Notes: generated by a model from the letters alone, not told the origin. DNA of 64,000 nucleotides from Potamilus streckersoni (GCA_016746295.1 JAEAOA010001935.1:2738024-2802023), one strand, 5' to 3'; positions 27,861 to 63,100 are shown, counted from the stretch's first letter. Numbers and translations: made by a program.

Positions 27861-27877
27861 ATCAGCCCACTATCGGT

Positions 27878-28329: not shown

Positions 28330-29560
28330 CAAACCAGTTGTATCAGCTTCATTGGAAATATGACATATAATTAACACAATGGAAATGTGATATACACTTA
28401 ACACAATAGAAATGTGATATACAATTAACACAATGGAAATGTGACATACAATCAACACAATGGAAATGTGATATACAATCAACACAATGGAAATGTGATA
28501 TACAATTAACACAATGGAAATGTGATATACAATTAACACAATAGAAATGTGATATATAATCAACACAATGGAAATGTGATATACAATCAATTAATGGAAA
28601 TGTGATATAAAATCAACACAATGGAAATGTGATATATAATCAACACAATGGAAATGTGATATATAATCAACACAATGGAAATGTGATATACAATCATCAC
28701 AATGGAAATGTGATATACAATCAATACAATGGAAATGTGATATAAAATCAACACAGTGGAAATGTGATATATAATCAACACAGTGGAAATGTGATATACA
28801 ATCAACACAATGGAAATGTGGTATAAAATCAACACTATGGAAATGTGCTATAAAATTAACTCAATGGAAATGTGATATACAATCAACACAATGGAAATGT
28901 GATATACAATCAACACAATGGAAATGTGATATACAATCAACACAATGGAAATGTGATATACAATCAATACAATGGAAATGTGATATAAAATCAACACAGT
29001 GGAAATGTGATATATAATCAACACAGTGGAAATGTGATATACAATCAACACAATGGAAATGTGGTATAAAATCAACACTATGGAAATGTGCTATAAAATT
29101 AACTCAATGGAAATGTGATATACAATCAACACAATGGAAATGTGATATACAATCAACACAATGGAAATGTGATATACAATCAACACAATGGAAATGTGAT
29201 ATACAATCATTACAATGGAAATGTGATATAAAATCAACACAGTGGAAATGTGATATATAATCAACACAGTGGAAATGTGATATACAATCAACACATAGGA
29301 AATGTGGTATAAAATTAACTCAATGGAAATGTGATATACAATCAACACAATGGAAATGTGATATATAATCAACACAATAGAAATGTGATATATAATCAAC
29401 ACAATGGAAATGTGATATATAATCAACACAATGGAAATGTGATATACAATCAACACAATGGAAATGTGATATATAGTCAACACAATGGGAATGTGATATA
29501 CAATCAACACAATGGAAATGTGATATATAATCAATACAATGAGTTTCTGGCTATTCATAT
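28330..29560. repeat. Minisatellite with a 27-bp unit (atcaacacaatggaaatgtgatataca), about 45 copies
   Basis: Period 27 bp. The minus-strand ORFs (YHISIVLIV)n at 28291-29558 are repeat artifacts. Confidence 0.95.
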
Positions 29561-29589
29561 ATCATAAACTGCAAGAGAATACCATTGTA

Positions 29590-30000
29590 TCAGAATAGTC
29601 TGCTTGGAAAATAATGCAAATCTTATGTACAGTAGATTCATTGCAGTTATCTCCTTAGAAAACATCTCAGATCTTATGCACAGTAGATTCAGGTCAGTTA
29701 TCTCCTTAGAAAATATCTCAGATCTTATGCACAGTAGATTCAGGTCAGTTATCTCCTTAGAAAACATCTCAGATCTTATGTACAGTAGATTCAGGTCAGT
29801 TATCTCCTTAGAAAACAAACATCTCAGATCTTATGTACAGTAGATTCAGGTCAGTTATCTTCTTAGAAAACATCTCAGATCTTATGCACAGTAGATTCAG
29901 GTCAGTTATCTCCTTAGAAAACATCTCAGATCTTATGCACAGTAGATTCAGGTCAGTTATCTCCTTAGAAAATATCTCAGATCTTGTGTACAGTAGATTC
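29590..30000. repeat. Minisatellite with a 51-bp unit (atctcagatcttatgcacagtagattcaggtcagttatctccttagaaaac), about 8 copies
   Basis: Period 51 bp. It runs in frame into the real exon at 30070, which explains ORF 29833..30366. Confidence 0.9.
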
Positions 30001-30069
30001 ATTTTAATTAAGTACTTTGAAATTATCTCAGATCTGTTGTACAGTTGTAATTCTTTTTATTGTTTACAG

Positions 30070-30257
30070 TGCCTGAGTGCCATCTATGGGTCAAGTGATT
30101 TCTTTACTCCCTTAAGGTCATTTCATCTGCTTTGCCCAGCAGAAAGCCATCAGAATATCTTCCTCATATCGGATGGTCATGTGACCCAGGATAGCTTCAT
30201 CTTGAACTCTATCAAGAGGGCTGCCAGACGAAGCAGACTGTTTACATTGGGAGTAGG
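30070..30257 (+). CDS. PARP4: PARP4 window-exon 12, vWA domain: CLSAIYGSSDFFTPLRSFHLLCPAESHQNIFLISDGHVTQDSFILNSIKRAARRSRLFTLGV(+gg)
   Basis: Acceptor tgtttacag|tgc and donor gg|gtcagt. Aligns to human MGNTDFWKTLRYLSLL...NILLVSDGHLQDESLTLQLVKRSRPHTRLFACGIG. Confidence 0.85.
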
Positions 30258-30559
30258 GTCAGTAGTTTGGTCAGTTTTTCAATGCTGCCATATTAAACAT
30301 AGCTCTCCATGGATGTGTCAATGTTTCCATCTCTCAGTATTGAACAGCTTAATGGACTTTTGTTGAGATGGTTTGATTTATGACCACTCATGCTTTCATT
30401 GCAAAGAATCTATCCTTAGATGTGGAAATTTGATTTGGAGACTTCTTTATGTAGGATCATTGAAAACTATTTGACACACATATATATAATTTAAAAATGT
30501 TGTATTGACTGCATTAGACTGTTGGTAAAATAGAAACATGACTGAAGTTTTCATTTTAG

Positions 30560-31960
30560 CCACACTTACATACTTAAATATCTTGTATATGTAGACATAG
30601 ATCATGAATAGGTATGTAGATATTGTGTATATGTAGGTATAGGTATATAGACACAGATGATGTATACATAAGCATAGGTATGTAGACTTAAATTATTTGT
30701 AGATAGGCATAGGTATGTAGACATATCATGCATATGTTAACATAGATGATAAATGTCATCCATATGTAAATATCGGTCATGCATATGTAGGCATAGAGGG
30801 TATGTAGATATAAATCATGTATATGTAAGTATAAACATATACACATAGATTATGCATATGTAGACACAGCTCCTGCATATGCATGCATAGGTGTGTACAT
30901 AGATTATGCATATGTAGGCATATATATGTAGTCATAAATTATGAATAGGAATGCATAGGAATGTAGATATAAATCATGCATATGTATGATGACAGATCAT
31001 GCAGATACAGACACAGATCATGCACTTGTAGACACAGCTTTATCAGTATATATCTCAACCTTATTGGTGGGTCACCTATTGCCATGCATAACAGCTTAAG
31101 CAGTTACATAAGCAATGGGACTTAGATAATGCAGATGTAGACAGATCATTAGACATAGATCATGCACATGTAGACATAGACATAGATCATGCAGATGTAG
31201 ACAGGTCATGCAGATGTAGACATAGATCATGCAGATGTAGACAGATCATTAAGATGTAGACATAGATAATGCAGATGTAGACATAGATCATGCAGATGTA
31301 GACAGATCATTAAGATGTAGACATAGATAATGCAGATGTAGACATAGATCATATATATGTAGACATAGATCATGCAGATGTAGACAGATCATTGGACATA
31401 GATCATGCAGATGTAGACAGGTCATGCAGATGTAGACATAGATCATGCAGAGGTAGACAGATCATTAAGATGTAGACATTGATCATATATATGTAGACAT
31501 AGATCATGCAGATGTAGACATAGATCATGCAGATATAGATATAGATCATTAGACATAGATCATGCAGATGTAGACCGGTCATGCAGATGTAGACATAGAT
31601 CATTAGACATAGAGTATGCAGATGTAGACAGATCATGCAGATGTAGACAGATCATGCAGATGTAGACAGATCATGCAGATATAGACAGATGATTAAGATG
31701 TAGACATAGATCATTAGACATTGATTATTTTGATGTAGACATAGATCATAAATATGTAGACATAGATCATAAAGATGTAGACAGATCATTAAGATGTAGA
31801 CATATCATTAGACATAGATCATAAAGATTTAGACATAGATCATTAGACATAAATCATGAAGATGTTGACAGATCATAAAGATATAGACATAGATCATAAA
31901 GATGTAGACATAGATCATTAAGATGTAGACATAGATCATAAAGATATAGACAGTTTAAAG
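30560..31960. repeat. Minisatellite with a 21-bp unit (gatcatgcagatgtagacata), more than 45 copies, with a degenerate 5' part at 30560-31000
   Basis: Period 21 bp. The minus-strand ORFs (MIYVYIC)n are artifacts. Confidence 0.9.
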
Positions 31961-32029: not shown

Positions 32030-32129
32030 CCCAACAGCCAATCACCACCAGATGAGATGTATTGCCAGCCTAGGAGGGGGAACATATGAGTACTATAATG
32101 CCAACACCAAATCAGCTTGGCAAAGGAAG
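32030..32129 (+). CDS. PARP4: PARP4 window-exon 13, vWA domain: (G)PTANHHQMRCIASLGGGTYEYYNANTKSAWQRK
   Basis: Acceptor cctgcag|ccc and donor aag|gtgaga. Aligns to human STANRHVLRILSQCGAGVFEYFNAKSKHSWRKQ. Confidence 0.85.
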
Positions 32130-33660
32130 GTGAGAGATATGAGTATTATAATGCCAACACCAAGTCAGCTTGGCAAAGGAAGGTGAGAGATATGAATACT
32201 ATAATGCCAACACCAAGTCAGCTTGGCAAAAGAAGGTGAGAGATATGAGTACTATAATGCCAACACCAAATCAGCTTGGCGAAGGAAGGTGAGAGACAGA
32301 AAGGAGTATTATAATGCCAACACCAAATCAGCTTGGCAAAGGAAGGTGAGAGATATGAGTACTATAATGCCAACACCAAGTCAGCTTGGCAAAGGAAGGT
32401 GAGAGATATGAGTACTATAATGCCAACACCAAATCAGCTTGGCGAAGGAAGGTGAGAGACAGAAAGGAGTATTATAATGCCAACACCAAATCAGCTTGGC
32501 AAAGGAAGGTGAGAGATATGAGTATTAAAATGCCAACACCAAGTCAGCTTGGCAAAGGAAGGTGAGAGATATGAGTACTATAATGCCAACACCAAGTCAG
32601 CTTGGCAAAGGAAGGTGAGAGATATGAGTATTATAATGCCAACACCAAATCAGCTTGGCAAAGGAAGGTAAGAGATATGAGTATTATAATGCCAACACCA
32701 AGTCAGCTTTGCAAAGGAAGGTGAGAGATATGAGTACTATAATGCCAACACCAAGTCAGCTTGGCAAAGGAAGGTGAGAGATATGAGTACTATAATGCCA
32801 ACACCAAGTCAGCTTGGCAAAGGAAGGTGAGAGACAGAAAGGAGTACTATAATGCCAACACCAAATCAGCTTGGCAAAGGAAGGTGAGAGATATGAGTAT
32901 TATAATGCCAACACCAAATCAGCTTGGCAAAGGAAGGTGAGAGACTGATATGAGTACTATAATGCCAACACCAAATCAGCTTGGCAAAGGAAGGTGAGAG
33001 ACTGATATGAGTACTATAATGCCAACACCAAATCAGCTTGGCAAAGGAAGGTGAGAGATATGAGTATTATAATGCCAGCACCAAGTCAGCTTGGCAAAGG
33101 AAGGTGAGAGATATGAGTACTATAATGCCAACACCAAGTCAGCTTGGCAAAGGAAGGTGAGAGACAGAAAGGAGTACTATAATGCCAACACCAAATCAGC
33201 TTGGCAAAGGAAGGTGAGAGATATGAGTATTATAATGCCAACACCAAATCAGCTTGGCAAAGGAAGGTGAGAGACTGATATGAGTACTATAATGCCAACA
33301 CCAAATCAGCTTGGCAAAGGAAGGTGAGAGACTGATATGAGTACTATAATGCCAACACCAAATCAGCTTGGCAAAGGAAGGTGAGAGATATGAGTATTAT
33401 AATGCCAGCACCAAGTCAGCTTGGCAAAGGAAGGTGAGAGACAGAAAGGAGTATTATAATGCAAACACCAAATCAGCTTGGCAAAGGAAGGTGAGAGACA
33501 GAAAGGAGTATTATAATGCCAACACCAAATCAGCTTGGCAAAGGAAGGTGAGAGACAGAAAGGAGTACTATAATGCCAACACCAAATCAGCTTGGCAAAA
33601 GAAAGGTGAGAGACAGAAAGGAGTATTATAATGCCAACGCCAAGTCAGCTAGGCAAACAA
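32085..33660 (+). repeat. Minisatellite derived from an exon-intron junction. The unit is the last 42 nt of exon 13 plus the first 11-15 nt of the intron (gagtactataatgccaacaccaaatcagcttggcaaaggaag|gtgagagatat). It occurs as 53-nt and 57-nt variants, about 27 copies, and each copy carries an aag|gtgaga donor
   Basis: Direct comparison of the unit with the exon 13 3' end and donor. ORF 33368..33631 shows the 57-nt variant reads through in frame. Confidence 0.9.
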
Positions 33661-34949: not shown

Positions 34950-35480
34950 ATAAGGCGTTATTTTTGGAGGCCATTACCCTACCATATGACATTAGTGATC
35001 ATTACAGCCCAACACAGCTGTACAATACAGGTTTTTTTTGGAGGCCATGTCCCTACCATATAACATTAGTGATCATTACAGCCCAACAATGCTGTACAAT
35101 ACATACTTATTTTTGGATGCCATGCCCGTACCATATAACATTAGTGATCATTACAGCCCAACTTAGCTGTACAATGCAGGGTTATTTTTGGAGGCCATGC
35201 CCCTACCATATAACATTAGCGATCATTACAGCCCAACAGAGCTGTACAATACAGGGTTATTTTTGGAGGCAATGCCCCTACCATATAACATTAGCGATCA
35301 TTACAGCCCAGCAGAGCTGTACAATACAGGGTTATTTCTGGAGGCCATGTCCCTACCATATAATATTAGAGATCATTACAGCCCAACAGAGCTGTACAGT
35401 ACATAGTTATTTTTGGAGGCCATGCCCCTACCATATAACATTAGCGATCATTACAGCCCAACAGCTGTACAATCATATCC
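34950..35480. repeat. Minisatellite with a 75-bp unit (ggaggccatgcccctaccatataacattagcgatcattacagcccaacagagctgtacaatacagggttatttttg), about 7 copies
   Basis: Period 75 bp. ORF 34922..35509 (195 aa) is an artifact. Confidence 0.9.
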
Positions 35481-37265: not shown

Positions 37266-37458
37266 GTAAGAAATGCAGGGTCAAAGAAAATAATAATCTC
37301 CTTTCTCAAATGGAACGTGATACTATACTGGAGTATTTTTTCTATCTAATAAGATTTTTTCTTAAGTCTGTGTGTCTATCATTTATATTGTAAAATTGGG
37401 GGCCTCGTTACAGTCACACTGTTCCAGAGTCACAGTGCTACTTTCACTTCGTTTGGGC

Positions 37459-37865
37459 CATTGCCAAGTTTTCATTCATTCAAAACTTTGCTTTTGAACC
37501 CCAATTTGTGTCAGTGCTTAAATGTAAACGACTATTATGCCCATATACTTCTTACCAGCTTCCTACGGTGCATGTATGGAGTATCGGCTGATGTTTGTTA
37601 TCATAGCATCCTCAGGATCGGACTTGTCGAGTTTGGGTTATCATTGTCCCTATATACCTCGTGTCAGCCCCATGCCGCTCAACATACAAGTATTGGACAC
37701 TTCACAACCCCACAAACTCCAACATGTATCTTTTCCTGAGGTATCCTTTAGAACAATTCAGAGCTGGGCTGGGGCAGTGTGCTGTGACAGGATTTGCCCC
37801 CATTATGCCAAAAGAATTATGTTATATATACAATAAAGTGTCTATTGAACAGGTGTATTGTGTGT
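37459..37865 (+). repeat. Dispersed repeat copy B, about 405 bp, same family and orientation as 8889-9295
   Basis: About 90% identity to copy A. Confidence 0.8.
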
Positions 37866-38401
37866 TATTTGAATAAGTTTGTTGTGCTTTTTAGCTGTCA
37901 TTTATATACCTGCTATCCATTCTTAAACTCAAATTTGATTTCATATTTTCATATGCTATCCACAACCCGGATTTTATCATGCTATATGTTGTTCATCTTC
38001 TGTCAGTCTTTTAGTTTTGTATCAGTTTTGTTTCCACACAATAGTTGGACTTGTGCACCATCTATTGTTACCAAACTCTATGGAAGGCATTCAGTTGGGG
38101 CAAGGAAGAACACCATCAATTAGTCTAGTTCCCTGCTTCGTATGCTCGCTGCGTTGCACTCCGCTGTACAGAGTCAGATGAACACCAATGCCATATTGTT
38201 ACGTGATCTAAACAAATGGCCTCACATGTAGAGATCTAGTTAATGTAACCATGTCACATTTATTTCTTTTCTATTCTGTTTGTCAGTGACACAGTGACCA
38301 AATATCATCACATTCACCCTCTCATGGAATAGGACTGCTATTTTGATCCTAATATTTGACAAAGTCTGAAGTGTCATGTACAATGAGATATCAATATCAG
38401 T

Positions 38402-44048: not shown

Positions 44049-44224
44049 GTCAGTCAGTATGTGGGTGTTGACAGGTTTATCATAGGTGTCTTAAATGCAG
44101 TGAAAGTTGAAAACATAAAACAAAGCAGCCTGATGCCCCTAAACTCATCAAACTGTTTAAATTTTGTTCTTTGTTCCTTCTTGATTAACATATTATATTG
44201 TCACCAGCTTGTTCTGTAAGATAT

Positions 44225-44935
44225 CAAGTATTACTGTAACATGAATTAAAAGTAAAAGATACAGGGAAGATATCAAGTATTAGTGTAACATTGGTTAAAA
44301 GTGAATGATACAGGGAAGATATCAAGTATTACTGTAACATGGGTTAAAAGTGAAAAGATACAGGGAAGATATCAAGTATTAGTGTAACATTGGTTAAAAG
44401 TGAATGATACAGGGAAGATATCAAGTATTACTGTAACATGGGTTAAAAGTGAATGATACAAGGAAGATATCAAGTAGTACTGTAACATGGGTTAAAAGTG
44501 AATGATACAAGGAAGATATCAAGTATTACTGTAACATGGGTTAAAAGTGAATGATACAAGGAAGATATCAAGTAATACTGTAACATGGGTTAAAAGTGAA
44601 AAGATACAGGGAAGATATCAAGTATTACTGTAACATGGGTTAAAAGTGAATGATACAAGGAAGATATCAAGTAGTACTGTAACATGGGTTAAAAGTGAAA
44701 AGATACAGGGAAGATATCAAGTATTAGTGTAACATTGGTTAAAAGTGAATGATACAGGGAAGATATCAAGTATTACTGTAACATGGGTTAAAAGTGAATG
44801 ATACAAGGAAGATATCAAGTAATACTGTAACATGGGTTAAAAGTGAAAAGATACAGGGAAGATATCAAGTATTACTGTAACATGAATTAAAAGTGAAGGA
44901 TACAGGGAAGATATAAAGTATTACAGTAGCATGTG
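44225..44935. repeat. Minisatellite with a 49-bp unit (gggaagatatcaagtattactgtaacatgggttaaaagtgaatgatacag), about 14 copies
   Basis: Period 49 bp measured between atatcaagta motifs. Confidence 0.95.
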
Positions 44936-46596
44936 TTGAAACTGAAGGATGCTGCTTTTTAAAAGGAAAGGATATAGGGAAGTTGTCAAGTATTACTGTA
45001 ATAAATGTTCAAAGTGAAGGAGACTTGAAAGATATCAAGATAACATTTGCTACAGTCAAGACTGTTATATTATTCACCAGTGTGCTTGTGGCCTTGTTAC
45101 AGTCAGTCATCTTCACTCAGATATTGTTGCATTATCTTATGTCTTTACAGAAGATCTACCATATTTATCTGTTTATAAGTCAAGTTTACCTGCAAACTGC
45201 ACAAAATCATATCTAACATTGCATAATGTGCCAGCCGATCTGGGTCTATGCAGTATCTTAGAAGCAATCATTAGAAGAAACATAGACCCTGATCTGCCTG
45301 CACATTATGTGAGAGTAAATCTGGGTATATCTTATTTGCAGTTGAACCCAAATTATAAGCATGTATATATGGTATACACTAGAAGTGGGCCTAGATTATT
45401 TTCCAAGGATTTGTAATAAGACCAGTAGTTAAAAATACATATACAAAGATTTTTAATAATCAACTTAATATAATGTTACATCCTTCTTTGCTGACTTTTA
45501 TTTAAGTATTGTATGATACATAACAGTAAAGTCTAAAAATTGTGTTGTTATAAAGCCTTATAAAACATTTAACACAGGGTCTATTCATTTCTACCTACTT
45601 TTTGTTCACATCATAATTGTCTAGACCCTGTATTAGCTAAATTTCTTGTTATTTTTCATATTTACCCCCTTTTTGGTACCATTTAAATTCAAATAATTAT
45701 ACTATAGCAGTGAATGGGACACAGAGTCATAAGTTGAACACTCACTTTTGAGAGTATTGAAAGTTATAGTTATACTTTGTTCATAAATTAAAGTGAAAAT
45801 GTGAACTGTACTATGAGATTTTACTTACATTTTTAAATTGCTTACATGTGTTTTTATTCTCATAAAAATTTGAAAATAAAAGTAAGTTAAGACAGGATAT
45901 TTTGATCTAGATAAAATATGCTCTGTACCATATATAGTTCTTATTTAATTGTTAACCTGTATTGCTTGTTGCAATATCACTAGTACCTCTGGTAGAGGTT
46001 TCAAAGTACTTGAAATGATGTATGTCTTTTCAGGTTCACAGCTGATTATACATCTGAGTACTTAAACTTGACATCAATAATTGAACTAAATTTGATTGGT
46101 TTTTTGGGCCCTGGAACAGGCAAACGAGCATTCTGTCATAGTTTTAAATTTGCATTCATCAAAGAAGTTTTACAAATACTTGTTTGTGGATAAAGGAGGC
46201 AACAATTGTAGTTATGACTCCACTAGCCCAGTAAGTATAATGCAGGGAAAAATATTCAAGAAATTCAAATTGTCCTTCTGTTTTACGATAAAAAGAACAG
46301 GTTTGTTACATGAATTTTTACTTATTTTAGTTGTGCTGGTTAGTTGAGCTTGGAAACTGTTGATGCCAAAAGCTGCTGAGCCATATCCATATGATATCTG
46401 TATCATCCAAAATTTAGGGATGATTCACATCACACCTAGAAGAAATAATTATAACAAATCAGTCACTGAATCTTGTAAAATTTTGTATTAGGTAATATAC
46501 ATTCACGCTACGTTAACTATTCATGACTATTAATATAATTAAAATGGAAATGATACACTAATAATAAATGTGTTTGTGTGAATTTTATTCTGTTAG

Positions 46597-49683: not shown

Positions 49684-49791
49684 GGTGAAGAGAAACATGA
49701 TGGCCCTTCTATTGCAGACCTAGTTGACCTAGAAAAGGTTGATATTCTACCATACATGCAATGGGATAATGCAGATGATTTTGATGAAATG
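49684..49791 (+). CDS. PARP4: PARP4 window-exon 18: GEEKHDGPSIADLVDLEKVDILPYMQWDNADDFDEM
   Basis: Acceptor gcttttag|ggt and donor aaatg|gtatta. Aligns to human SPFPDIPKVSELIAKEDVDFLPYMSWQGE. Confidence 0.8.
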
Positions 49792-49812
49792 GTATTATTT
49801 GTTCTTACATAA

Positions 49813-49832
49813 TCTCTCTAGCTCTCTCTCTC

Positions 49833-49910
<78 letters not shown>
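49813..49910. repeat. (CT)n microsatellite, about 45 units, beginning about 20 nt after the exon 18 donor
   Basis: ct dinucleotide run with a few ca/tt interruptions. Confidence 0.95.
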
Positions 49911-52900
49911 CTGACATTGGAGACTATAATATTTTGATCCAAAAGTCACTTATTTTTCTGTCTGTGATCCACTCTAACCCATCACAGACAGAGGGCTATT
50001 AAACATAAATTCATAACTTGGATTATTCTCCAAATAATAACTTGACAGATGAAATAAAACCCCAAAGATTATTTACAGCATCAGCAAGATGTGGAATATG
50101 GCAGACACTATTTTTAACTCATTTATCCTGCTATTAGCTGCAGGGTATTAGGTTTGCAGATTTAATATTTTTCTTTCACTCATATTGATATTTCCAGTCA
50201 TCTTTTCACCTGTCGATGATAACTTCTTGTTATCAATCATTAGTTGGGCAAAACTTACTGCTTGTGAGTTATCCAGGTTGATAGGTGGATATGTTGTTTC
50301 AAGGTTTAGCTCTTGTAGACCTGACATACTTAAATTAACTGTCATTGTATCTCCAGTGGTTGTAGTTACTTTTGTTTTTCTTCTGTTGAGCTTTCAATTA
50401 ACGTACCAAATTTTGTGTTATTACCATGAGATTTTGTGAATACCTGGTACAGAAAAAACATAATCAAGTTTGACACAGAGTGCTTAATCAAACAGTAACA
50501 TAACCACAATTTACTGGATTGTCATTACCTGATAGTGGGACAAACTGGATTGAGCAAAACTAACCTTCTGATGTATTTATTACTTAATGTAATAGGACTA
50601 TGATCGAGTTTATATCTACATGATCAGTCAACAGTCAATAAAGAATTGCTTAGTGAATACAGTGGAAAGCTAAAATATGTGTAGGCAATGATATATTTAT
50701 TATAAAACAACCTGAAGATCTAATTCCATTTGCAGAGCTAGATTGTCTTTGATGACATTTTACTAAGCAATTCTGAGATGGATAAGATAAAATCTTACTT
50801 TTCATTGTCAGAACAAAAAAATGTAATGCAGTCTGTCTGGCACTAGGATTTTGTAACATCGATCAATTTGTCAGGCGAAATACAGTTTGTTTTATACTAT
50901 TTGCTGTACTTGACAATGTTGATGTGCAAAATATAGCCTGAGAGATAAATTTGCTGAGCTTTGTTATAACACTACTGGAAGAAGTGCAGAAGAAAGATAT
51001 TGAAAAAAATAGGAGGCCCTAGTGCGCTACAAGAAGAGGTAAAAAATTTAATCTCTGAATCATTACATCAAGAATTATTATCATGGTCACAAAGATGTCA
51101 GAAGAGAATCAGATTAAGTTTTATTAAAAAGAAACTGCAAGAGAACCAATATCAAAAGAAGAAGCTTGGTATGCCATGGCAAATATAAAAACTAACATGA
51201 ATGATGATTTCACATTTCAATCGATCCAGCCAGCTGACCCGGTTTGGATTTCTGTTAAGAGACAGCAATGCTCTTACAGCGTTACAGATATAAAAAAAGC
51301 AATAAAGTTATTGATTACAACTAAAGTTTAATCTGCTTCATACAATTTTGAGCTCATTCCAAACTATAATAAACTGCATGCCAGAATCACTTTGAGAAAC
51401 AATTTTTAGTATCACCAGTAGCATCAGGCCATTGTTAGGTTTTACTAGAAAACAGTTTGGTTCTATGTAGAGTGCTTTAGTTTCATACAATGGTGAATGA
51501 CCAGTAGATGTAACAAAAATAAGTTCAATTTTAGTGAACTGCTCGATTGTCAGCTGGTCGTATACAGCGTGTGGCAATAAGGGACAAACTATTTATCTGT
51601 ATAGTACTGATGTTCCACCAGGTTCGCTTATGCAAGTGATACCATGGCAAATAATCTATCCTATTAGTATTAAAAATCAAATATCTTTTGTCACGATGAC
51701 ACTGACTGATCAATCCTGCTGGCAGCTAAATCTCAATGATGAAATCATAACATATTGCACATGAGGTCAGTTAACTAATCACAGTGAGCTAGCTCACCAC
51801 AACTATTCTCACCAAAGTCAATTTTATCAGAAGTTTTGTATACCAGAATGAAACATGAAAAAATTTATTGCAGAAAATCGTACATGGTTTGATTGGAAAT
51901 ATATTCTCTAAAATAGTTGCAACTTTACCTGGAAATGCAAATAAAGTATCACCTATGACAATTGATGCATTTAACACTTTTGCCATAGGAGCCTCATCAG
52001 CAGCTGTCAGACAAAAGATTGCTGATAAAATTGCAGAGCAGTCTTGCACCCATTGCAAATTGCAAGTGACAAGGATATAAAACAAGTAATTTCTGAAAAT
52101 ATCACCAATGTCAGAAACCGCAGGAGCTATGATAAAAATGACAAAAAAAAACTGCTATCTCTGCCAGGTGAATAAATATTAGAAAATTAATAACCAAAAC
52201 TAGACCACATCCAGATATTGTAGCATTCTAATGGGTTACTGCGCAGCAAACTTTGATTTTATCTAACAAATACAAATAAAAATGTCTATAAAAAATACCT
52301 TGACCTGATCGTGGAAATGCCAACAGATAACTCAGGAACAGAATTTGAGTATGTTGAGTATCTCATTGAATCTAACAAAATAGGTATAAAAACTTGTAAT
52401 ACATTAGATGAAGATGTGTTTCTGTTGCCACACAAAGCTGTACTTGAAGTTTGAGGTAGAACCCAAACAACTGATAATCCACCTGGAGATATTACAGCTG
52501 ATACACATATAACACTTGTGAACATTGGTTGGAGTTTATTTAGAGGTATCAACTAGCTAATTAAACTGTAGAAGATAGTTTGATGTACTTAACAATTGCA
52601 AGTACTGTTCATAATGTAGTTTCATTTAGCGATGACTACTCACAATCTGTTGCAATAAATATGATATGGTTTAGAGATACTGGACCTGGCACAATTGCAG
52701 TAGCTTAATTACTTAGAGTTGTTACAACACCAATTGCTGGTGCTGACAATGCTTGAACTAATAATCATGCATTTCTAGCTCTGCTTCATGCTCAGTATGT
52801 GACAACGCCATCAGCTGATAATGCAGTGGATAATGTCAGAAATGTGCTAATAGTTCTTTGCAATGCAATTGGAAATACCCCACCAGGTGATGCAGCTGCG

Positions 52901-55900
52901 ATGCTAGCTAAAGCTCAGTCTATCATTCCAGTGATTAGAGCTCAATCTTACAATGAAGATTATGTTAAATGACAAACATTTACAGATAACTCAAATCAAA
53001 TAACTATGATGCTGATACTTAGCATACTATTTAATTTGCAGAGACTATAATAAGTTATTTTATGGTATAAAACACATTTACACTTGATCGAGCTGATCAA
53101 AATGATTGTCTAATGAAAGCTGCTGGTGTCAATGATGCACAGTTTATAATTTCACAGTTGGTGTTGTGGATGCCACATATCATTCCTTTGATTGATAAAT
53201 TAATAGAACCTGAGACAATGCTAACAAAATTCACAGAAAAAGTATCTTATGCAGAACAAAGTTTATCAAATTGCAATTCACAATTCTATCAATAACACTT
53301 GATGAATAACAACAGTATCAAGCAAACAGTTACCAAGGCATGTATTTATTGTGTTTTAACAACAGAATAGACATGGAAGTCAACTTCAAAACAATTCTGT
53401 ACTGGATAGTCCAGATGTAAGATGAATATTTGTCAGAATAAATTCCAAGCAGTATCCTGACCAAGCATTCAAATATAATTTTGCAGCTAATGCTGCAGTA
53501 TCAGCTGACAGAGATGTATTTTGAGCTTACATGTATCTGATGTAAAAATATCAAGATACTGACATTTAATCTCAAATTTTAATTGAAGAATTTAGGAAAC
53601 TTCATTCAATATTTCACTTTGATGTCAGTAAGCATAACGAACAAGCTATGGTATCAACTTCAGATATTGAGGTCACGTGGACACTTGGACAAATATTGAG
53701 GTCACATGGACACTTGGACAGATTCTAGCTGCTCCAGATAATATGTATTATGCATACATGCTAAATGATAAATTCTTAACAATAGAATCTACCAAGGGAA
53801 GGATGACTGTTGTTTAAGTGTTAACTGGTGTGAGCAATACAACTTTATTCACAAAGTGATGGAATGTATTGATTTTCTTGCAAGTAGTGGAGTGATTGAA
53901 GTATAACTTTTATCAAACAAAAGGAAAAGAAAATACAATGAAATATATTATACACAATGTGATCTTATATCTGAGACAAATTAAAACATTAACACAAGCT
54001 ATTATTAAACAATAATCTGTTTCACTGAAGATAGATTTCAGACTAGGATTGTCGAGCAATCCACCACCAGCAAAACTAACACTAACACAGTGGCAACTCA
54101 ATAAAATACAACTGCAAAAACCTATTATGTTAAATTTATCAGCAGTGCAAGTTACTGCAATGGCCAAATTGCAGGTGATCCATGGTGGTATTTTGGGACC
54201 TGCAATTGCAACTGTTGTGAAAATGGTTCTACCAAAATTACCACTAGTTTTAGGAATGTTTAGGATAGCCGCTGCTTCAGGGGCAATATCTGGAGCAACA
54301 AAAAAAAAAGATGTGTCTGGTGATTAAGTCACCAGCAATGGAATCAAACAGTAATCTAGTGATTTTATCTAATGGTTATAATAAAAAAAATGCCTGGAAA
54401 ACATAAAACAGCAACGACATGTAAAAACAACTAAGAAAAAAGAGAAATGCAAAGATGAACTGGAAAGCATTTCAATGTGGATTCATAGGTCTGTTCTTAG
54501 CTGGAAGTCTACTTCTCAATCTGCTGGGGATAGGAAAGGACTAAAGACAAGTTACTGCTCCACTCTCCACTGATAAATCAAAGTTGTGTTATAAATATCC
54601 AAAATTTCAACAATAAATCTGGTACAGATTGGGTACAGTTTATCAACAATAGATCTGGTACAGATTGGATACAGTTTATCAACAATAGATCTGGTACAGA
54701 TTGGGTAGCATTTTATAACAACTGCTTTCATTCATCGGGCTGCCAAGTCGATGAAATCGCAATGCCTCATGACATGTTCCCATGACAACAAAAAATGACA
54801 AATCTGGTTGTAACTGTATAATGCTTGATGAGTTGAGTGATATGAAACTGAAAGGAAAAAGTGAGCAAGTTGATTGTATGCTAGTACAATGTATCATTGG
54901 AGCAAAATATAAACTTGGAAAGCCCTGGCTTGAGAGAAAAGTATACTTTACAACAATGGAGTGCAGAGCACTTTAGCACATGCACTTCACAGACCTAAAA
55001 AAGGTTACCTCGATGAAGCCTTATTGCAAATGCAGTTGATGACATATGGGCAACACATCTCACTGATATGTCAAATATTTCACAGTACAATGAAAACATA
55101 AGGTACCTGATGAATGTAGTTGATATTTTTTAGTAAATACGTGTTTAGGAAAAGCTATAACTAATGCAACAACAACTCTTTGAAATGAAATCCTGTATGT
55201 CAGACCAATAAAAACCTTACAAAGACTAAAAACACCATACATGAAAATTGTATTCATACATTATATAAGATCAACAGTTTTAAAACAAATGGTATACACA
55301 AAGAATTTTTACACATATTTACATCATTATTTACATTTTTGAAACTTTATTTCATTCTTTTTACTTATAACCTTATCATCTATCTGCTTTGGCTGAACAA
55401 AGAAGCTTTTGATGGAGTCTCCCTTTTTCATTTCAAAGTTTCTTTGTAAACAACTGTAATGTCATTACTTCATATTTTACAAAAAGCATGGGAAGATCCT
55501 AACTTGGATATATCTACGGTGCCAGGGCAGACTTTATTCCAATCAGTCTGAAACTTGCCATGATCTCTGCCAGTATCTTCAAGCTTGCATTTCTTTAAGT
55601 TAGGCTTGACCATTTGATGGATGGAATATTTCAACTAGATTGATTCATTTGAATATTTCGACTAAAATATTTTAACTAGATGAAAGAAAAAAAAGAAAAA
55701 AATTAAGATTTGACACATGATATGTGAAGATCTCCCAATTACAAATGTGTTATGAATTTATCTATATCTCCCATAAACTACAAGATATTATGCCAAGAGC
55801 TATAAAAAAAATGGAAATCTAGAAATAAAGAAATCGACATCAGTCCAGAAGTTTCTTCCTTGTAAGCTGTTGATGGTTTCTATTAAAAGTGTATATCTGG

Positions 55901-56719
55901 TGTTTGAAAAGTTATGAATTTGCTAAATGGTGTGCTGATTTTGGTCACAAACTTGATATAAATTGGCAGTGTTACACATTTTCAAGCCACAAAAGTGGTA
56001 TCTGTACTACTGTCATTATAGCAATGCATCTTCATGTTTGCATTACATATCTGACAAACTTAATTCAAACTATGACAGCATGATAAAGTGCTAAATTCAG
56101 CAGACTGTTTATTTTTAATTATTATATTGTTACAAATTTTAATAAATCAACTTTATCGCCACACAAAAAAGTTGGACAAATTATGGTTACACCAACATGA
56201 CTGCCACACTCTGCAAAGTATGAAAATTTTGTAAATTTTATGCATTTGATAGTAATAAGTATAAATAATAAAATAATCATGTATAAAATAAAAAAAACAT
56301 ACTACACAGGTAGTTAGTCAATATTAGAAATCTGAGTGAATGTCAAATTTCAGAGCCATAAACAAAAAGATCTTCACACACACGAGTTGAACCATGAGTG
56401 AAACTCATTTCATTATCTAATGAAAAGTATGCTTTTGATTATGATTTGTTTGGCTGTTTCAGGCCATCCTTATCTCATTGAATTCTCATTCTAAAATACA
56501 ATTTTGCCCAGATTCCCAGATGCACACAAAGCGAAAAAAAAATATTTAACAAAGATTTAAATTTTGTATGAAAAATAGTACAAAACAGTTGTACGGCCTA
56601 CACTGACAAAAAGGAAAAAAAAAACATACAAATTATGGGTAAATTGTACAAATTGACACCTATGCTAATGCTATGTGAGATATTATAATCAGCACATAAA
56701 GAAACCAAATAAAGTATGG

Positions 56720-57110
56720 ATGTCATAGAGTGGAGTTTTTAATAAGCAATTCAAAGAGTTTCTGGAACAAAATAGTATTATCAAATATATCACTGGGAAT
56801 GAAGGAAAAAGTGTCAGTGTCCAGAGATTTAATCACACAATAAAAGAAAAGATCTACAAACAACTCACAGCCAAAACCACTAACAGATATGTTGATGATC
56901 TGCAAAAGATTGTGTCAATTTACAATAACACAAAAGCATAAAACACTTGGAATGTTGCTCAATGAATCTGTTAATAATCCAGTGCTGGTGAACGAGAATA
57001 TGTACCAAAGACACAAATTTAAAGTCGTTGATAGTGAGAATTTCACTAGTTGCAATATTATTGTCAGTTACACTCCCATATACCTGATAGACTCACATCC
57101 CCATTTGAAT
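56720..57110 (+). mobile_element. Decayed rve-type (retroviral or Polinton-like) integrase core fragment. It reads FNKQFKEFLEQNSIIKYITGNEGKSVSVQRFNHTIKEKIYKQLTAKTTNRYVDDLQKIVSIYNNTKA*, then continues after a frameshift as HKTLGMLLNESVNNPVLVN
   Basis: Conserved C-terminal integrase core pattern (V.RFN.T.K..I.K.L....W...L..IV..YNNT.H.T.GM.P.E), interrupted by a stop and a frameshift. ORF 56889..57365 is its out-of-frame tail. Confidence 0.5.
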
Positions 57111-58614
57111 ATTATCACACAACAGTTTATAAATAAAATCCTTGATAAACATTTCAGTATATTCCACATCATTCTCCAATGTCACTTTTATCTAACCAGC
57201 TGGAGTTCTAACCACAAATTTAGTTTTAAGATTAATCACCACTCCCAGCATATTTCCAGCATAGCAGTTGTACTTCTGATAAATGTAGAATATCTGCTGC
57301 TCACTAGCCATTGGTTTAAGTCAACTAAGCATAATTTTGTTCATCTTATAATAACACCAATTTAGTTTCTTTTATTGACGTTTTCATATTGTACTAATAA
57401 AGAAACATAAAACTGTAAATATAGCAATTTTGAAACTTGCTGATATCGCAAAGAGAAGCTTAATCTTGACAGAAAGATGTCAGCCTAAAAAAATTACAGC
57501 TGGGTTCAATAACACCTCGAGATCTGATGATAAATGTTTATTAGCAATGTTTATTTCTGTGCCAAAAATTTATATCATCTGCTTCTACCAACAATTAAGT
57601 CTGAGCTTGCCTTAGACAAGAGTCTAAGATGATAGTTAAGTGTTTTGTTCAGCTTTCTAAGCTAAATGTCTTCAGGATATCAACAGCAAATAGGCTTGCT
57701 GATCAGATGTCTCAGCAGCGAGAGGAATTTGCTAATCATTATATCACATAAAAATGACACTATGAAATATAATCCATTGCAAAGTAGCTCATATGTTGAG
57801 CTGCCCACTAAGATAAAAAACTCAAAATGTTGCATCAATGTCTGGAACAATGATGGCAAATGTTTTCAATGGCCTATATTAACAGTGTTATTTCCAGCAT
57901 GAGAGCATTCTTATCAGGTATCAAATTATATTCGTCATGTTTACAATCTTAGTGGGATTGACTTTCCTGTTTTTGAAAATCATATTCCAAACTTTTGAGA
58001 AACAAAATAAACTCCTGTTATCAGTAGATATTAGTATGTTTGGTGTTAATGATGATACATAATAGATCTATCCAAGATGCATCAAACATCACCAACACCA
58101 ATAAATGCACTACTTTATTAAATAAAGAACTTTAATGGGCAAGTGAGAGGGCAATATAACAAGCATAAGGAAAAAAACAATTTATGTTTCATATGCTGGT
58201 ATGGTTGTAAGTCTCAACAGGTATTTGAGTAACATCTTGAGAATTGCTCTAAAGTACAGTGGATATCGATGCCTGGTGAAGACAAAAAGATTTTACAAAT
58301 TACAAACACAAGATGAAAGTGCCTTTTATAATTTATGCAAATTTTGAGTTTGTTTTACTTCCAGTGCTTGGAGCAGAAAATAACCCTGATAAATCTTCAA
58401 CAAAAAAAATTCAAGAACACATCTTGTGGAGTGGCATTTAAAAATGTCTGTGCTGCTGATAAAGGTTTATCAAAATCAATAAAGATTTATCAGGGCATAA
58501 ATCCTGCCCTCTGGCGCCTGAAAAAAAACTTACAATGACCTTGATTTTCACTGATGTTATTTGCTAAGGCAAAAAAAATGAAACTGATAGCAGGAAACAA
58601 GAGGCTTGATTTGC

Positions 58615-59345
58615 TTCAGTAGAACTATGTCATATTTGTGAACAGGAGCTTTTGCCTTAAGATCATGTAAACTATCACTGTCATATTACTGGTAAGTATC
58701 GCAGTCCAGCACATAACAAATGTAATTTAAAATATACCACACCAGATTTATTTCCTGTTGTCTTTCAAAATTTCATAGGATATGATTCTCATTTGTAGTT
58801 TTAGCTTTACAGCCAAAAAAACCCATCAGAAAATGATGTTTAACAATAAAATAAAGTGCAAGTCTCTGACACTCAGCAAGATTTATTGATAGTTTTCAGT
58901 TTATGGCAGCATCATTCGATGAGCTTGTAAAAGGTCTGCATTAAATTCAATAATTTGACTAAATATTTTGGTGATAAATCAAGTTTATTGACACAAAAAG
59001 GAATTTTTCCTTATGAGTATCTTGATGATTGGAACGGAAAGATAAGTTTTTTTTCTTGTTTAGATCTTGAGAGTGTCAGTGATGTTGATTATGCTGAATA
59101 GATATGGGACTCATCCGGCTGTAAAAACTTGAGAGATTATCATGATTTGAATCTTATCACAGATGTGCTATTGCTCGCAGATTTATTTGAACATTTCTGA
59201 TGTCTGCACTGATAATTATTCAGATGGATAAGTGAAAAACAATTTTTTGATGAAGCTGATAGAATCGTTACAGTGGGATGCAAGAACCCTGAAGTTCGTT
59301 ATTTTGTTGGAGTTGATTTTGACGATCCTTTTGAGATTTATGATG
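58615..59345 (+). mobile_element. Decayed protein-primed family-B DNA polymerase (pPolB, DNA_pol_B_2-like) fragment, the Polinton/Maverick hallmark gene. It reads CHICEQELLP*DHVNYHCHITGKYRSPAHNKCNLKY..PDLFPVVFQNFIGYDSHL ... SFDELVKGL ... FKNLTKYFGDKSSLLTQKGIFPYEYLDDWNGK ... SDVDYAE*IWDSSGCKNLRDYHDLNLITDVLLLADLFEHF
   Basis: Recognised from memory, not from a search, as the conserved N-terminal module of eukaryotic element-encoded pPolB (CxxC...DHCHxTGxxRGxAHxxCNL, PVxFHNLxGYDxH, PYEYxDxW, KNLxxYHDLYLxTDVLLLADVFExFR). Multiple stops and frameshifts indicate a pseudogene. Confidence 0.5.
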
Positions 59346-59945
59346 AGCAATAACAACTATCCATTTTGTCCAGAATCAATGCTGATTGATTACAATTTAT
59401 TATGATGAGCAATAACAACTATCCATTTTGTCCAGAATCAATGCTGATTGATTAGAGTTTATTATAATGAGCAATAACAACTATTCATTTTGTCCAGAGT
59501 TATTGCTGATTGATTACAGTTTAATATGATGAGCAATAACAACTATCCATTTTGTCCAGAATCAATGCTGATTGATTACAATTTATTATGATGAGCAATA
59601 ACAACTACCCATTTTGTCCAGAATCAATGCTGATTGATTACAGTTTATTATGATGAGCAATAACAACTATCCATTTTGTCCAGAATCAATGCTGATTGAT
59701 TACAATTTATTATGTTGAGCAATAACAACTATCCATTTTGTCCAGAATCAAATGCTGATTGATTACAATTTATTATGATGAGCAATAACGACAATCCATT
59801 TTGTCCAGAATCAATGCTGATTGATTGCAATTTATTATGATGAGCAATTACAACTATCCATTTTGTCCAGAATCAATGCTGATTGATTACAGTTTATTAT
59901 GATGAGCAATAACAACTATCCATTTTGTCAATGCTGATCAATTAC
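59330..59945. repeat. Minisatellite with a 62-bp unit (tgatgagcaataacaactatccattttgtccagaatcaatgctgattgattacaatttatta), about 9 copies, beginning inside the 3' end of the pPolB remnant
   Basis: Period 62 bp. The first unit is contiguous with the pPolB-fragment reading frame (..FEIYDEQ). Confidence 0.9.
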
Positions 59946-60139
59946 AATTTATTATCTGATGAACATATGTTAACCTTTTTCTGAAAACAAAACCTGAACA
60001 GCTCAATTGTTGGGAAATTTTAGATAAGTTACAACTCTCAAAAGGCTTAAGACTAATGGATGAATACTCTTGAATCATTTCATTATAATTTTACATGTGT
60101 ACTCAAAGCATAATGCACAAATACAGATCACTTACATCA

Positions 60140-60400
60140 TGTTTTACATGATCTCAGCTGGTAGAGTATCAGTCTTGTATTCAAAGGGTAGCAGGTTCAA
60201 TACCCACCAGTTAAGGTCAGCTGCCTAGGCATGCCCATGGGAAAGGCATTTAACTAACATTTCCCCAATGTGATATAACAAACAGAAAAGTGCCATTTGT
60301 CCAGTTTTGGACTTCCAGACATTAAAATAAAAACTAAACTGCCATGGAAGTCACACAGAATTTGTATGCTCAATTTTTTAAAAACCCTGGTGAAAATTTG
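60140..60400 (+). mobile_element. SINE-like element with a tRNA-related head (tctcagctggtagagtatcagtcttgtattcaaagggtagcaggttcaatacccacc)
   Basis: D-arm-like (agctggtagag) and T-arm-like (ggttcaatacc) motifs, but no acceptor-stem pairing. Followed by a non-tRNA body. Confidence 0.45.
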
Positions 60401-60589
60401 GGTTGTTTTGAAATAAATGATAATAAGCAAACTTGTAGGTTTCATAACAAACAAACCCAGTTATCTCAATTACGTCGGAGGTGTCAACAAATCTTTGACA
60501 TAATTGGGACCCAAGAATGATTTGGTTTGGTGTTCTATTTCACAGCAACACAGAAAAGGTTATATCATTCTAAGGCAAATAATTTGTCT

Positions 60590-60700
60590 TAATACACCAC
60601 AGTATCCTATCTTGTCCGAATCAGTGGCAGAAATTGAACCTGCACCGTTCTGGTCACAAGTCTGATGCATTAACCACTGAACCACCTTAACTGTATATAT
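60590..60700 (-). mobile_element. tRNA-related SINE head or tRNA pseudogene (reverse complement ggtggttcagtggttaatgcatcagacttgtgaccagaacggtgcaggttcaatttctgccactga)
   Basis: D-arm-like and T-arm-like motifs on the minus strand. The anticodon stem does not pair canonically. Confidence 0.4.
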
Positions 60701-60927
60701 TGGCATGATTAAATATAGTTTTTGAATTCTGTTAGTCATCAGTCCTTCACCTCTGCATCCAAGCCACAATGGATGTCTGTATTTTGGATTGATGAAAGGT
60801 AGCTTGAATCATTGGAAATGATAGGAATAGGAATATTTACTGTCTATCAATGTCCAGTTATATTCTTTGTGCGTTTTTTTGTTTGTGTATATAACATTTC
60901 TTGGAAAATGTGTTGGTCTTTTTTCAG

Positions 60928-61074
60928 AGTCCAGAAGATACAATTAGAGGATTGCTGCAGAAGGGGAAAATTGCAGAGGGCTTTTCAATGAACAGAGCAG
61001 AGGAGATCTATACCTCCATAGGAGACCTTCTAGAAGAAGCCAGTCTCCATGAAAACAAAGATCTAGCCAAAGAG
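60928..61074 (+). CDS. Probable further exon of the same + strand gene (C-terminal region): SPEDTIRGLLQKGKIAEGFSMNRAEEIYTSIGDLLEEASLHENKDLAKE
   Basis: Acceptor cttttttcag|agt and donor aaagag|gtttga. Open frame, phase-compatible with exon 18 and the next exon. I recall no homology to assign, and exons may be missing in the preceding 11-kb intron. Confidence 0.5.
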
Positions 61075-61083
61075 GTTTGAATG

Positions 61084-61230
<147 letters not shown>

Positions 61231-61329: not shown

Positions 61330-61640
61330 ACCAGAACTTTTTTGAATGATTGAGAATGGAACTGGGCCCATCATTCTGGGATTTCTGAATGATTGAGAAT
61401 GAAACTGGGCCCCTCATTCTGGGATTTCTGAATGAGATTGGAACTGGGCCCCTCATTCTGGGATTTCTGAATGATTGAGAATGGACCTGAGCCCATCATT
61501 CTGGGATTTCTAAATGATTGAGAATGGAACTGGGCCCCTAATTTTGGGATTTCTGAATGATTGAGAATGGAACTGGGCCCATCATTCTGGGATTTCTGAA
61601 TGATTGAGAATGGATTTGGGCCCATCATTCTGGGATAGAA
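61330..61640. repeat. Minisatellite with a unit of about 44 bp (gaatgattgagaatggaactgggcccatcattctgggatttct), about 7 copies
   Basis: Direct periodicity with one shorter variant unit. Confidence 0.85.
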
Positions 61641-62509: not shown

Positions 62510-63100
62510 ACTGCACGGACTCAGGTCTACTGTCACATAATGTGTGGGTATTTTCAGGTCTACTGTCACATGATGTGTGGGTATTTCCAGGTCTACTGTC
62601 ACATAATGTGTGGGTATTTTCAGGTCTACTGTCACATGATGTGTGGGTATTTCCAGGTCTACTGTCACATAATGTGTGGGTATTTCCAGGTCTACTGTCA
62701 CATAATGTGTGGGTATTTCCAGGTCTGCTGTCACATGATGTGTGGGTATTTCCAGATCTAATGTCACATGATGTGTGGGTATTTCCAGGTCTACTGTCAC
62801 ATAATGTGTGGGTATTTCTGGGTCTACTGTTACATAATGTGTGGGTATTTCTGGGTCTACTGTCACATAATGTGTGGGTATTTCCGGGTCTACTGTCACA
62901 TAATGTGTGGGTTTTTCCAGGTCTACTGTCACATAATGTGTGGGTATTTCCGGGTCTACTGTCACATGATGTGTGGGTATTTCCAGGTCTTCTGTCACAT
63001 AATGTGTGGGTATTTCCGGGTCTACTGTTACATAATGTGTGGGTATTTCCGGGTCTACTGTTACATAATGTGTGGGTATTTCTGGGTCTGTGCAGTTTGT
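62510..63100. repeat. Minisatellite with a 33-bp unit (caggtctactgtcacataatgtgtgggtatttc), about 18 copies
   Basis: Period 33 bp. ORFs 62458..63126 (+) and 62483..63223 (-) are periodic artifacts. Confidence 0.95.

Follow-up and report, generated by a model that had tools for sequence, protein, structure and literature searches.

A dead Polinton/Maverick-like element in a putative intron of a PARP4-like gene of Potamilus streckersoni, and a minisatellite derived from its DNA polymerase gene

In a stretch of 64,000 nucleotides of the Potamilus streckersoni genome (GCA_016746295.1 JAEAOA010001935.1:2738024-2802023; in the following called the window, with positions counted from its first letter), we have identified the remains of a virus-like element of the Polinton/Maverick type. 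The surviving element covers about 10 kb, from approximately 50.15 to 59.99 kb, and has retained a near-complete gene set. It is very probably the dead fossil of a single element that entered the germ line and now lies within a putative intron of a PARP4-like gene, with the same orientation as that gene. The gene content of its relatives suggests that its lineage would be that of the Alpha-type adintoviruses. The original prediction, made for positions 56,720 to 59,945, had described a decayed Polinton/Maverick remnant at this locus, and our analysis bears out this assignment with matches to the protein-primed DNA polymerase B (PolB; 2.2e-101), to the integrase (1.1e-16), and to the major capsid protein (MCP) as well as with a Polinton gene order. 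The proposed limits had to be given up: the element reaches about 6.5 kb further upstream. Moreover, the PolB gene harbors a 62-bp minisatellite, and the repeat unit is itself PolB coding sequence.

The PolB remnant takes up all of 57.43-59.99 kb on the plus strand, including the region of the minisatellite. Its N-terminal region and the exonuclease domain through Exo III can be followed from 57,427 to 59,337 by database search, tblastn, profile search, and frameshift-aware alignment. A whole-database search with a hand-stitched translation returned 1,017 proteins with E-values of at most 1e-5, with P0001 as the best match (2.2e-101, 45% identity), and tblastn with this protein pushed the 5' limit of the remnant to 57,427. 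Many of the homologues carry PF03175 (DNA_pol_B_2) together with PF02945 (Endonuclease_7), and those with a named source stem from a scallop and corals. A profile built from 45 long homologues found the gene in the unguided six-frame translation as well, with matches at 58,289-59,200 (1.4e-62) and 57,714-58,502 (7.4e-33). Frameshift-aware alignment revealed the extent of the decay: there are 14 frameshifts and four stops relative to P0001 (53% identity), and 15 frameshifts and ten stops relative to P0003 (40% identity), in agreement with the stops and frameshifts that had been predicted to run through the locus. Scanned directly with Pfam, the remnant gave no significant match to DNA_pol_B_2 and yielded just Endonuclease_7 (0.004-0.015); the surviving N-terminal and exonuclease part was not matched by PF03175, and the polymerase half is absent, which explains the result. 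The absence of this half is concluded from the polymerase motifs KLMNNSVFGK and YTDTDS, which were found neither past 59,990 nor elsewhere in the window by profile and sequence searches. A match of the PolB C-terminal profile on the minus strand (11,096-10,863, independent E-value 0.019) was not reproduced by tblastn and was discarded as noise.

Comparison with intact homologues shows that the remnant spans the Exo III motif (DVLLLADLFEHF) and continues up to ...WDARTLKFVILLEL. Thereafter about 110 codons are missing, YLDANNLYGWAMS among them (LTD...YLDANNLYGWAMS...GYILE). The junction of this internal deletion can be placed at 59,290-59,320 (+), where the DNA, read in two frames, corresponds to either flank of the gap (…WDARTLKFVILLELI and VGVDFDDPFEIYDE, respectively); the size of the loss and an involvement of microhomology would follow from this arrangement. 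PolB resumes at VGVDFDDPFEIYDE / NNNYPFCPESMLIDYNLLSDEHML, which aligns to LEVDLEYPEELHDLHNDYPLAPEKMxVTEDMLS of the homologues. Between Exo I and Exo II, at 58,610-58,730, there is an Endonuclease-VII-like motif, CxxC...DHCHxTGxYRxxAHxxCN, which PolB of this lineage, including the homologues P0001-P0120, shows as CxxC...DHCHxTGxYRGxAHxxCN. About half of the 120 listed PolB homologues carry a precomputed PF02945 match, and the match in the window is weak (0.004).

Directly upstream of PolB lies the integrase, which is split into two pieces on the plus strand. The C-terminal part of the core, an rve fragment, is located at 56,699-57,010, and the N-terminal part including the region of the first catalytic aspartate (IRYLMNVVDIFSKY) at 54,909-55,146, where it was detected by profile search, tblastx, and frameshift-aware alignment (score 121). 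The integrase profile matches both (54,930-55,133 at 1.6e-9 and 56,705-56,935 at 1.1e-16; best match in reversed DNA, 2), and in profile coordinates the two pieces abut without sharing any position (40-107 and 137-214), with a common strand and the expected order. In tblastn, the rve+Chromo integrase of the related locus L001 matches the window at 56,699-56,935 (1e-13, 45% identity), and the N-terminal piece is collinear with the L001 integrase in tblastx. A degenerate tail of the SH3/chromo type may follow at 57.0-57.24 kb; this is a by-eye match that is not significant. Upon a direct Pfam scan, the translation scored 0.14 for rve and 0.12 for rve_3, neither of them significant, because its rve core has been broken in two and carries mutations. 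The peptides quoted in the original prediction are indeed encoded on the plus strand where they had been placed, those of the integrase (VQRFNHTIKEKIYKQL...IVSIYNNTK / HKTLGML) at 56,732-57,150 and those of PolB at 58,661-59,197; on this strand, stretches resembling PolB occur between 57,765 and 59,350. The distance of 1.5 kb that had been given for the two genes turned out to be the gap between the recognized motifs: PolB begins at 57,427, about 0.2-0.4 kb past the integrase remnant.

The two integrase pieces are separated by an AT-rich block of 1.55 kb (55,147-56,698, 29% GC) that became apparent in the comparison with L001, in which the corresponding segments are 127 bp apart in tblastx as compared to about 1,600 bp here. 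Searches of this block for terminal inverted repeats (TIRs), target-site duplications (TSDs), RNA families of Rfam, and tRNAs were negative, and the block does not recur within the window. Its minus-strand translations contain short open stretches, such as ...VKPNLKKCKLEDTGRDHGKFQTDWNKVCPGTVD....

The genes upstream of the integrase were found with family profiles, which were constructed by clustering the open reading frames (ORFs) of 26 related loci of at least 4 kb, including some of 61 metagenome loci. The six-frame translation of the whole window was searched with these profiles in chunks, and reversed DNA served as the control. The double-jelly-roll MCP gene is present at 52,323-53,692 (+), with four profile matches at 52,323-52,562 (0.007), 52,544-52,687 (7.9e-7), 53,065-53,202 (4.7e-6), and 53,243-53,689 (7.3e-14) that are collinear in profile coordinates; the best match in the control was 5.7. 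A virion ORF of L001 matches the window at 52,607-52,693 and 53,077-53,205, and tblastx places these matches collinearly with that of the integrase. Frameshift-aware alignment to the MCP of L009 scored 219 as compared to 38 for shuffled sequence, with six frameshifts and four stops in the C-terminal ~650 bp. The members of the MCP family match the Pfam domain DJR-like_dom (PF21738) at 1e-57 and 1e-55, and the frameshift-corrected MCP of the window matches it at 6.2e-7 (29.4 bits, cut-off 27), a score that is somewhat inflated since the stitched frames were chosen against a family member.

Two further genes of the virion and packaging module are identified less firmly. A penton-like (minor capsid) gene has left its C-terminal ~70 codons at 51,519-51,746 (+), where the profile matches positions 51,519-51,743 (independent E-value 4.6e-7 as compared to 0.059 in reversed DNA) and all three family members align in the frameshift-aware mode (59-78 as compared to 43-54 for shuffled sequence). 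The family has no Pfam match, and the label "penton" is taken from its position and size in the relatives. A marginal match further suggests a packaging ATPase of the FtsK/HerA-A32 type at 50,463-50,953 (+), with Walker A (LIVGQTGLSKTN) and Walker B (IVFDD) motifs, about six frameshifts, and two stops. Here, the profile matches at 50,523-50,825 (independent E-value 0.0012; next match in the window 2.8, best in reversed DNA 4.3), and five of five members align to the site with scores of 55-76 as compared to 44-65 for shuffled sequence. The family members match Pox_A32 in Pfam (5e-14), and no significant Pox_A32 match was obtained in the direct scan of the remnant in the window. More generally, none of the direct Pfam scans of the hand-stitched integrase, PolB, ATPase, penton, and MCP translations was significant due to partly wrong frames and heavy decay, and after frameshift-aware stitching the MCP alone passed.

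Evidence for a Polinton also comes from the relatives. Three loci, L001, L003, and L005, carry a Pox_A32 ATPase, several ORFs of virion size, a Phospholip_A2_4 gene (PF08398), an rve+Chromo integrase, and PolB; in all three, the integrase immediately precedes PolB and shares its strand. The integrases of the relatives combine PF00665 with PF00385 (Chromo). In the window the order is ATPase, penton, MCP, the conserved gene X2, the protease/phospholipase A2 (PLA2) region, integrase, and PolB, and this is the order of the three loci, the strand of the ATPase excepted. The loci L002, L004, and L006 contain the same hallmark genes in different orders. The Pfam test suggested in the original prediction failed when the window was scanned directly for rve and DNA_pol_B_2; the homologues of both pieces carry PF03175 and PF00665 plus Chromo within full Polinton gene sets. 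The view that the locus is a small, internally deleted stub of integrase and PolB has to be abandoned: the integrase adjoins PolB in intact relatives too, and ATPase, penton, and MCP are present upstream. A scan of IMG/VR with P0001 gave no relatives, and a scan of the JGI metagenomes gave 61 loci; L007 and L023 are 93% and L008 is 69% identical to P0001, and these three are too short (1-3.2 kb) to provide gene context.

The metagenome contigs L001, L003 (ENA ERZ25073780, ~22x coverage), and L005 appear to carry intact genomes of the Polinton/adintovirus type with uninterrupted ORFs for ATPase, penton-like protein, double-jelly-roll MCP, protease, PLA2, rve+Chromo integrase, and PolB. In L001, a second, fragmented copy of PolB is present downstream at 14.8-17.9 kb.

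The remaining genes of this set have left weaker traces. X2, which lies between the MCP and the protease genes in the relatives, has left a remnant at 53,934-54,321 (+): three members reach frameshift-aware scores of 67, 57, and 52 as compared to 41, 44, and 46 for shuffled sequence, and the profile search was not significant. A possible PLA2-like remnant (DEIAMPHDM...) at 54,744-54,941 (+) is suggested by one member (54 as compared to 40 for shuffled sequence), with the others at control level and no significant profile match; its position fits that of PLA2 just upstream of the integrase in the three syntenic loci. For the adenain-like (Ulp1/C5) cysteine protease, whose family members match Peptidase_C5 weakly (0.0038), nothing above the controls was found, and several members align to the syntenic position at 54.54-54.81 kb at chance level. 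The protease has been lost or has decayed, and such a loss in a fossil does not count against its ancestry. The family X1 likewise gave no significant profile match and scores at chance level at the syntenic position. Finally, a gene of the fibre-like or F5/8-type-C kind, which adjoins the ATPase gene in the relatives, may have left a weak remnant at 49,930-50,405 (-). The top three matches of profile Y14 in the window all fall into this interval (E-values 0.085-1.4), a first fibre profile gave 0.031, and some members score 56-60 as compared to 35-41 for shuffled sequence, with the others at control level.

Several observations weigh against the derivation of the whole region from one Polinton. 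The ATPase gene is on the plus strand here, whereas the three loci with the greatest similarity carry it on the minus strand. The nearest PolB relative is just 45-53% identical. No direct significant Pfam match to rve, DNA_pol_B_2, or Pox_A32 was obtained from the window, the frame choice has favored the score of the MCP, neither protease nor PLA2 left a significant remnant in profile searches and frameshift-aware alignments, and a whole-database search with the hand-stitched ATPase, penton, and MCP found nothing, with partly wrong frames and weak remnants. Moreover, TIRs and TSDs were detected neither for the element nor for the 1.55-kb insert. The search of the flanks recommended in the original prediction gave nothing above shuffle level: there is no such inverted repeat between 49.8-50.5 and 59.95-60.9 kb, nor anywhere in 48.5-61.5 kb. 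As TIRs and TSDs are missing, the boundaries are approximate and the single insertion is a probable one; the absence of terminal repeats fits an element whose two ends were lost or truncated.

Two alternatives both assume a Polinton contribution. The region might be a composite, in which at least two Polinton fragments of separate origin lie side by side, or a copy that has been rearranged, for example with 50-55.1 kb and 56.7-60 kb joined by the 1.55-kb spacer. Such an origin would account for the integrase halves being parted by 1.55 kb without TSD or TIR, for the unusual orientation of the ATPase, and for the lack of termini that delimit one element. However, the integrase pieces abut in the profile in the right order and on the same strand, and a chance meeting of two random fragments is unlikely to have produced the gene order of L001, L003, and L005, so that we consider a composite improbable. 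Even less probable is a narrow version in which just the stub of integrase and PolB at 56.7-59.9 kb stems from a Polinton and everything upstream is unrelated intron. It is true that these two genes alone are obvious by eye and that the Pfam and whole-database searches of hand-stitched upstream translations were negative, but the profiles of MCP, penton, the integrase N-terminus, and the ATPase (7.3e-14, 4.6e-7, 1.6e-9, and 0.0012, respectively) match collinearly on one strand with clean controls, and with DJR-like_dom there is a direct Pfam match upstream.

The original prediction had left room for an integrase piece that belongs to a Gypsy-type long terminal repeat (LTR) element; its position beside the PolB piece would then be a coincidence. 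The rve integrases of chromoviruses bear chromodomains as well, and the direct Pfam score (rve 0.14) does not discriminate. We nevertheless reject this idea as having next to no likelihood: the integrase matches those found in Polinton context, both in L001 (1e-13) and with the family profile (1.1e-16), its N-terminal half is in register 1.6 kb upstream, and order and spacing of integrase and PolB are as in the three syntenic loci. A Pfam scan of 53.7-55.1 kb gave no signal for reverse transcriptase, RNase H, or protease, and the DNA just upstream of the integrase contains remnants of capsid and X2 genes instead; moreover, no long LTR-like direct repeats flank the locus. It is just as hard to believe that a part of the element has been domesticated or is functional, be it a surviving ORF of 158 codons at 56,889-57,365 or the minisatellite, which might act in the regulation or splicing of the host gene. 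The persistence of this ORF and the sense orientation within the intron might be taken as hints, but the ORF is an integrase tail devoid of the catalytic core, none of the families matches it significantly, all genes contain multiple frameshifts and stops, and the minisatellite is one among many in the window (see below). A single dead Polinton thus remains the preferred reading, and the element is without present function, i.e. a neutral filler of the intron.

The 62-bp minisatellite at 59,338-59,951 (+) consists of ten units, the last of which has a 7-bp deletion, as judged by Tandem Repeats Finder and a layout by hand. The program itself reports a 62-bp unit in 9.5 copies with 93% matches at 59,338-59,929. 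The unit corresponds to the PolB segment ...(Y)DE/NNNYPFCPESMLIDYNL, which matches ...HDLHNDYPLAPEKMxVTEDML of the homologues. Every unit is matched by the PolB C-terminal profile and translates to the motif HNDYPLAPEKM, and a phmmer search with the unit region scored 17.7 bits (shuffle maximum 10.3), with matches in 49 of the 120 listed homologues, most of them collinear. Thus, a part of the PolB ORF did seed the tandem array, as had been proposed. The idea that the array starts where PolB ends has to be corrected: the unit itself belongs to the coding region of PolB, and codons resembling PolB run for about 40 bp beyond the array, the final recognizable ones being LLSDEHMLTFF (cf. MLSPYC...) at 59,952-59,990 (+), a short match made by eye. 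The array lies inside the PolB remnant, at the 3' end of the surviving part, rather than at the true terminus of the element.

All units share one common frameshift between ...YDE and NNNYP..., and the period of 62 is not divisible by three, suggesting that the amplification would have taken place in DNA that was already non-coding. The array is bracketed by an imperfect direct repeat, TTATGATGAGCAA upstream and TTATCTGATGAACA after the last unit. The multiplication of the 62-bp stretch of dead PolB to ten tandem copies most likely started with replication slippage or unequal exchange between these repeats (TTATGATGAGCAA ... TTATCTGATGAACA). In the third unit (59,462-59,523), substitutions create a perfect hairpin stem of 9 bp (AGCAATAAC...GTTATTGCT); a sub-threshold Rfam match to Plastid-psbA-3 at this unit (E-value 0.58) is spurious and was produced by the hairpin.

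The formation of such arrays is commonplace in this genome, and the 62-bp array is not special: at least 20 further minisatellites are present in the window. Their periods are 21-124 bp, and one array has 68 copies of 47 bp and covers 3.2 kb. The density of minisatellites is exceptional in the window, and several arrays yield long spurious ORFs. Examples are located at 1-553, 12,400-12,987, 14,668-17,838, 18,954-19,843, 20,252-20,957, 28,353-29,541, 31,124-31,953, 32,084-33,657, 34,957-35,473, 44,218-44,950, 61,339-61,636, and 62,522-63,089. Within the element, a 36-bp tandem repeat of 3.2 copies is present at 54,607-54,721.

Taken together, the history of the locus may have been as follows. 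A Polinton/Maverick would have integrated once in the germ line, in sense orientation within an intron, and frameshifts and stops would then have inactivated every gene. Later, about 1.55 kb of foreign DNA would have entered the integrase gene, about 110 codons would have been deleted within PolB, and the polymerase half of PolB as well as both termini would have been lost.

The surroundings of the element are AT-rich and eukaryote-like (GC mostly 30-37%, with a maximum of 42% near 32-36 kb). Upstream, the plus strand encodes a PARP catalytic domain (4,323-5,148, 8.4e-11), a VIT domain in four exons (6,338-18,533, 1.3e-37), and a VWA domain in three exons (25,468-30,258, 1.2e-10). This set of domains is the architecture of PARP4 (vault PARP). 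On the same strand as these exons, the element is framed by a putative upstream exon at 49,684-49,791 (GEEKHDGPSIADLVDLEKVDILPYMQWDNADDFDEM) and a putative downstream exon at 60,928-61,086 (SPEDTIRGLLQKGKIAEGF...), both preceded by AG and followed by GT. Together they would define an intron of 11,136 bp (49,792-60,927, +) with GT at 49,792, AG ending at 60,927, and phase-compatible open frames on either side, which would hold the whole element and be almost filled by it. An 11.1-kb intron of a PARP-VIT-VWA gene is thus plausible from the sequence: splice-bounded exons on the strand of the host gene agree with the predicted 11-kb intron, and a whole-database search with the two putative exons and a VWA exon gave no match, and hence no homologue that spans the junction. 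At the left edge, a (TC)48 microsatellite (49,813-49,909) separates the exon from the beginning of the element-like sequence.

The introns of the PARP4-like gene are very long and full of repeats. A 428-bp interspersed repeat occurs twice (8,879-9,306 and 37,452-37,878, both +), each time in a host intron, with 95% identity between the copies. A comparison of the element with the rest of the window by an interspersed-repeat search yielded microsatellite matches only. By eye, two stretches shortly downstream of the element, at 60,140-60,260 (+) and 60,600-60,690 (-), look like halves of tRNAs (…GGTAGAGTATCAG…GGTTCAATACCCACC) and were considered as candidate pieces of a tRNA-derived short interspersed element; they were negative with ARAGORN and Rfam, and the idea was dropped. 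On the minus strand at 42,751-42,318, there is a possible remnant of a GIY-YIG endonuclease (NVIYLITCKICSLQYV...; Pfam GIY-YIG 0.005, below the cut-off), which is preceded by a CxxC-rich stretch and might stem from a Penelope-like or another GIY-YIG-bearing element.

Polintons, or Mavericks, reportedly go back to the work of Kapitonov & Jurka in 2006 and of Pritham et al. in 2007. Like them, the element described here combines protein-primed PolB, an rve integrase, an A32/FtsK-type ATPase, a double-jelly-roll MCP, and a putative penton-like gene in an integrated block of about 10 kb; unlike intact copies, it is dead, shows no detectable TIRs, TSDs, or adenain-like protease, has lost the polymerase half of its PolB, and contains a 1.55-kb foreign insert as well as an internal minisatellite. 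That Polintons/Mavericks possess capsid genes, of the double-jelly-roll type, was reported in 2014 by Krupovic, Bamford & Koonin (PMC4028283). Mavericks are present in all mollusc genomes analyzed (PMC10294476). In adintoviruses, PLA2 is typical of the Alpha (Mayetiola-class) virion module, and degraded adintovirus/Polinton copies have been found endogenized in all eumetazoan phyla and rebuilt via synteny, the approach also taken here (Starrett et al. 2021; PMC8502044). L001, L003, and L005, the closest intact relatives found in this analysis, have the genes of an adintovirus, a PLA2-like one among them, whereas the PLA2 remnant of the window itself is not significant and its PolB is 45-53% identical to the nearest sequence.

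The conversion of transposable elements to tandem repeats is well reviewed, with slippage or microhomology duplication as the general model; the review stresses miniature inverted-repeat transposable elements and retrotransposons and does not mention Polintons/Mavericks (PMC9659126). As in other minisatellites derived from transposable elements, a stretch from the interior of a mobile element gave rise to the array, and the flanking short direct repeats fit slippage or microhomology-mediated duplication; in contrast to the reviewed satellites, the progenitor is PolB coding sequence of a Polinton, and the array, with its 0.6 kb, is small and, as far as the window shows, confined to this place rather than part of a dispersed satellite family. 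Minisatellites and satellite DNAs that stem from transposable elements are also the subject of further reviews (PMC6947457, PMC12628747).

One might see in the locus a minisatellite caught at its origin, with a progenitor (a defined stretch of PolB codons), a bracketing microhomology, and a timing after pseudogenization that are all legible in the sequence, in a genome with an unusual rate of minisatellite formation. The widespread Endonuclease-VII-like His-Me/zinc-finger insert, in turn, might be an undescribed functional module of adintovirus polymerases; we regard both readings as possible and rather unlikely. The element is an ordinary genomic fossil, a new copy of something known, and opens no new question. 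For the annotation of the Potamilus streckersoni genome, this means that the intron fossil of about 10 kb should be masked, that the pseudo-ORFs of PolB, integrase, and capsid proteins should not be annotated as genes, and that the 62-bp array should be recorded as derived from a transposable element. The locus adds one more case of two known kinds, the degraded endogenous Polintons of animals and the dead transposable element sequences that feed tandem repeats.

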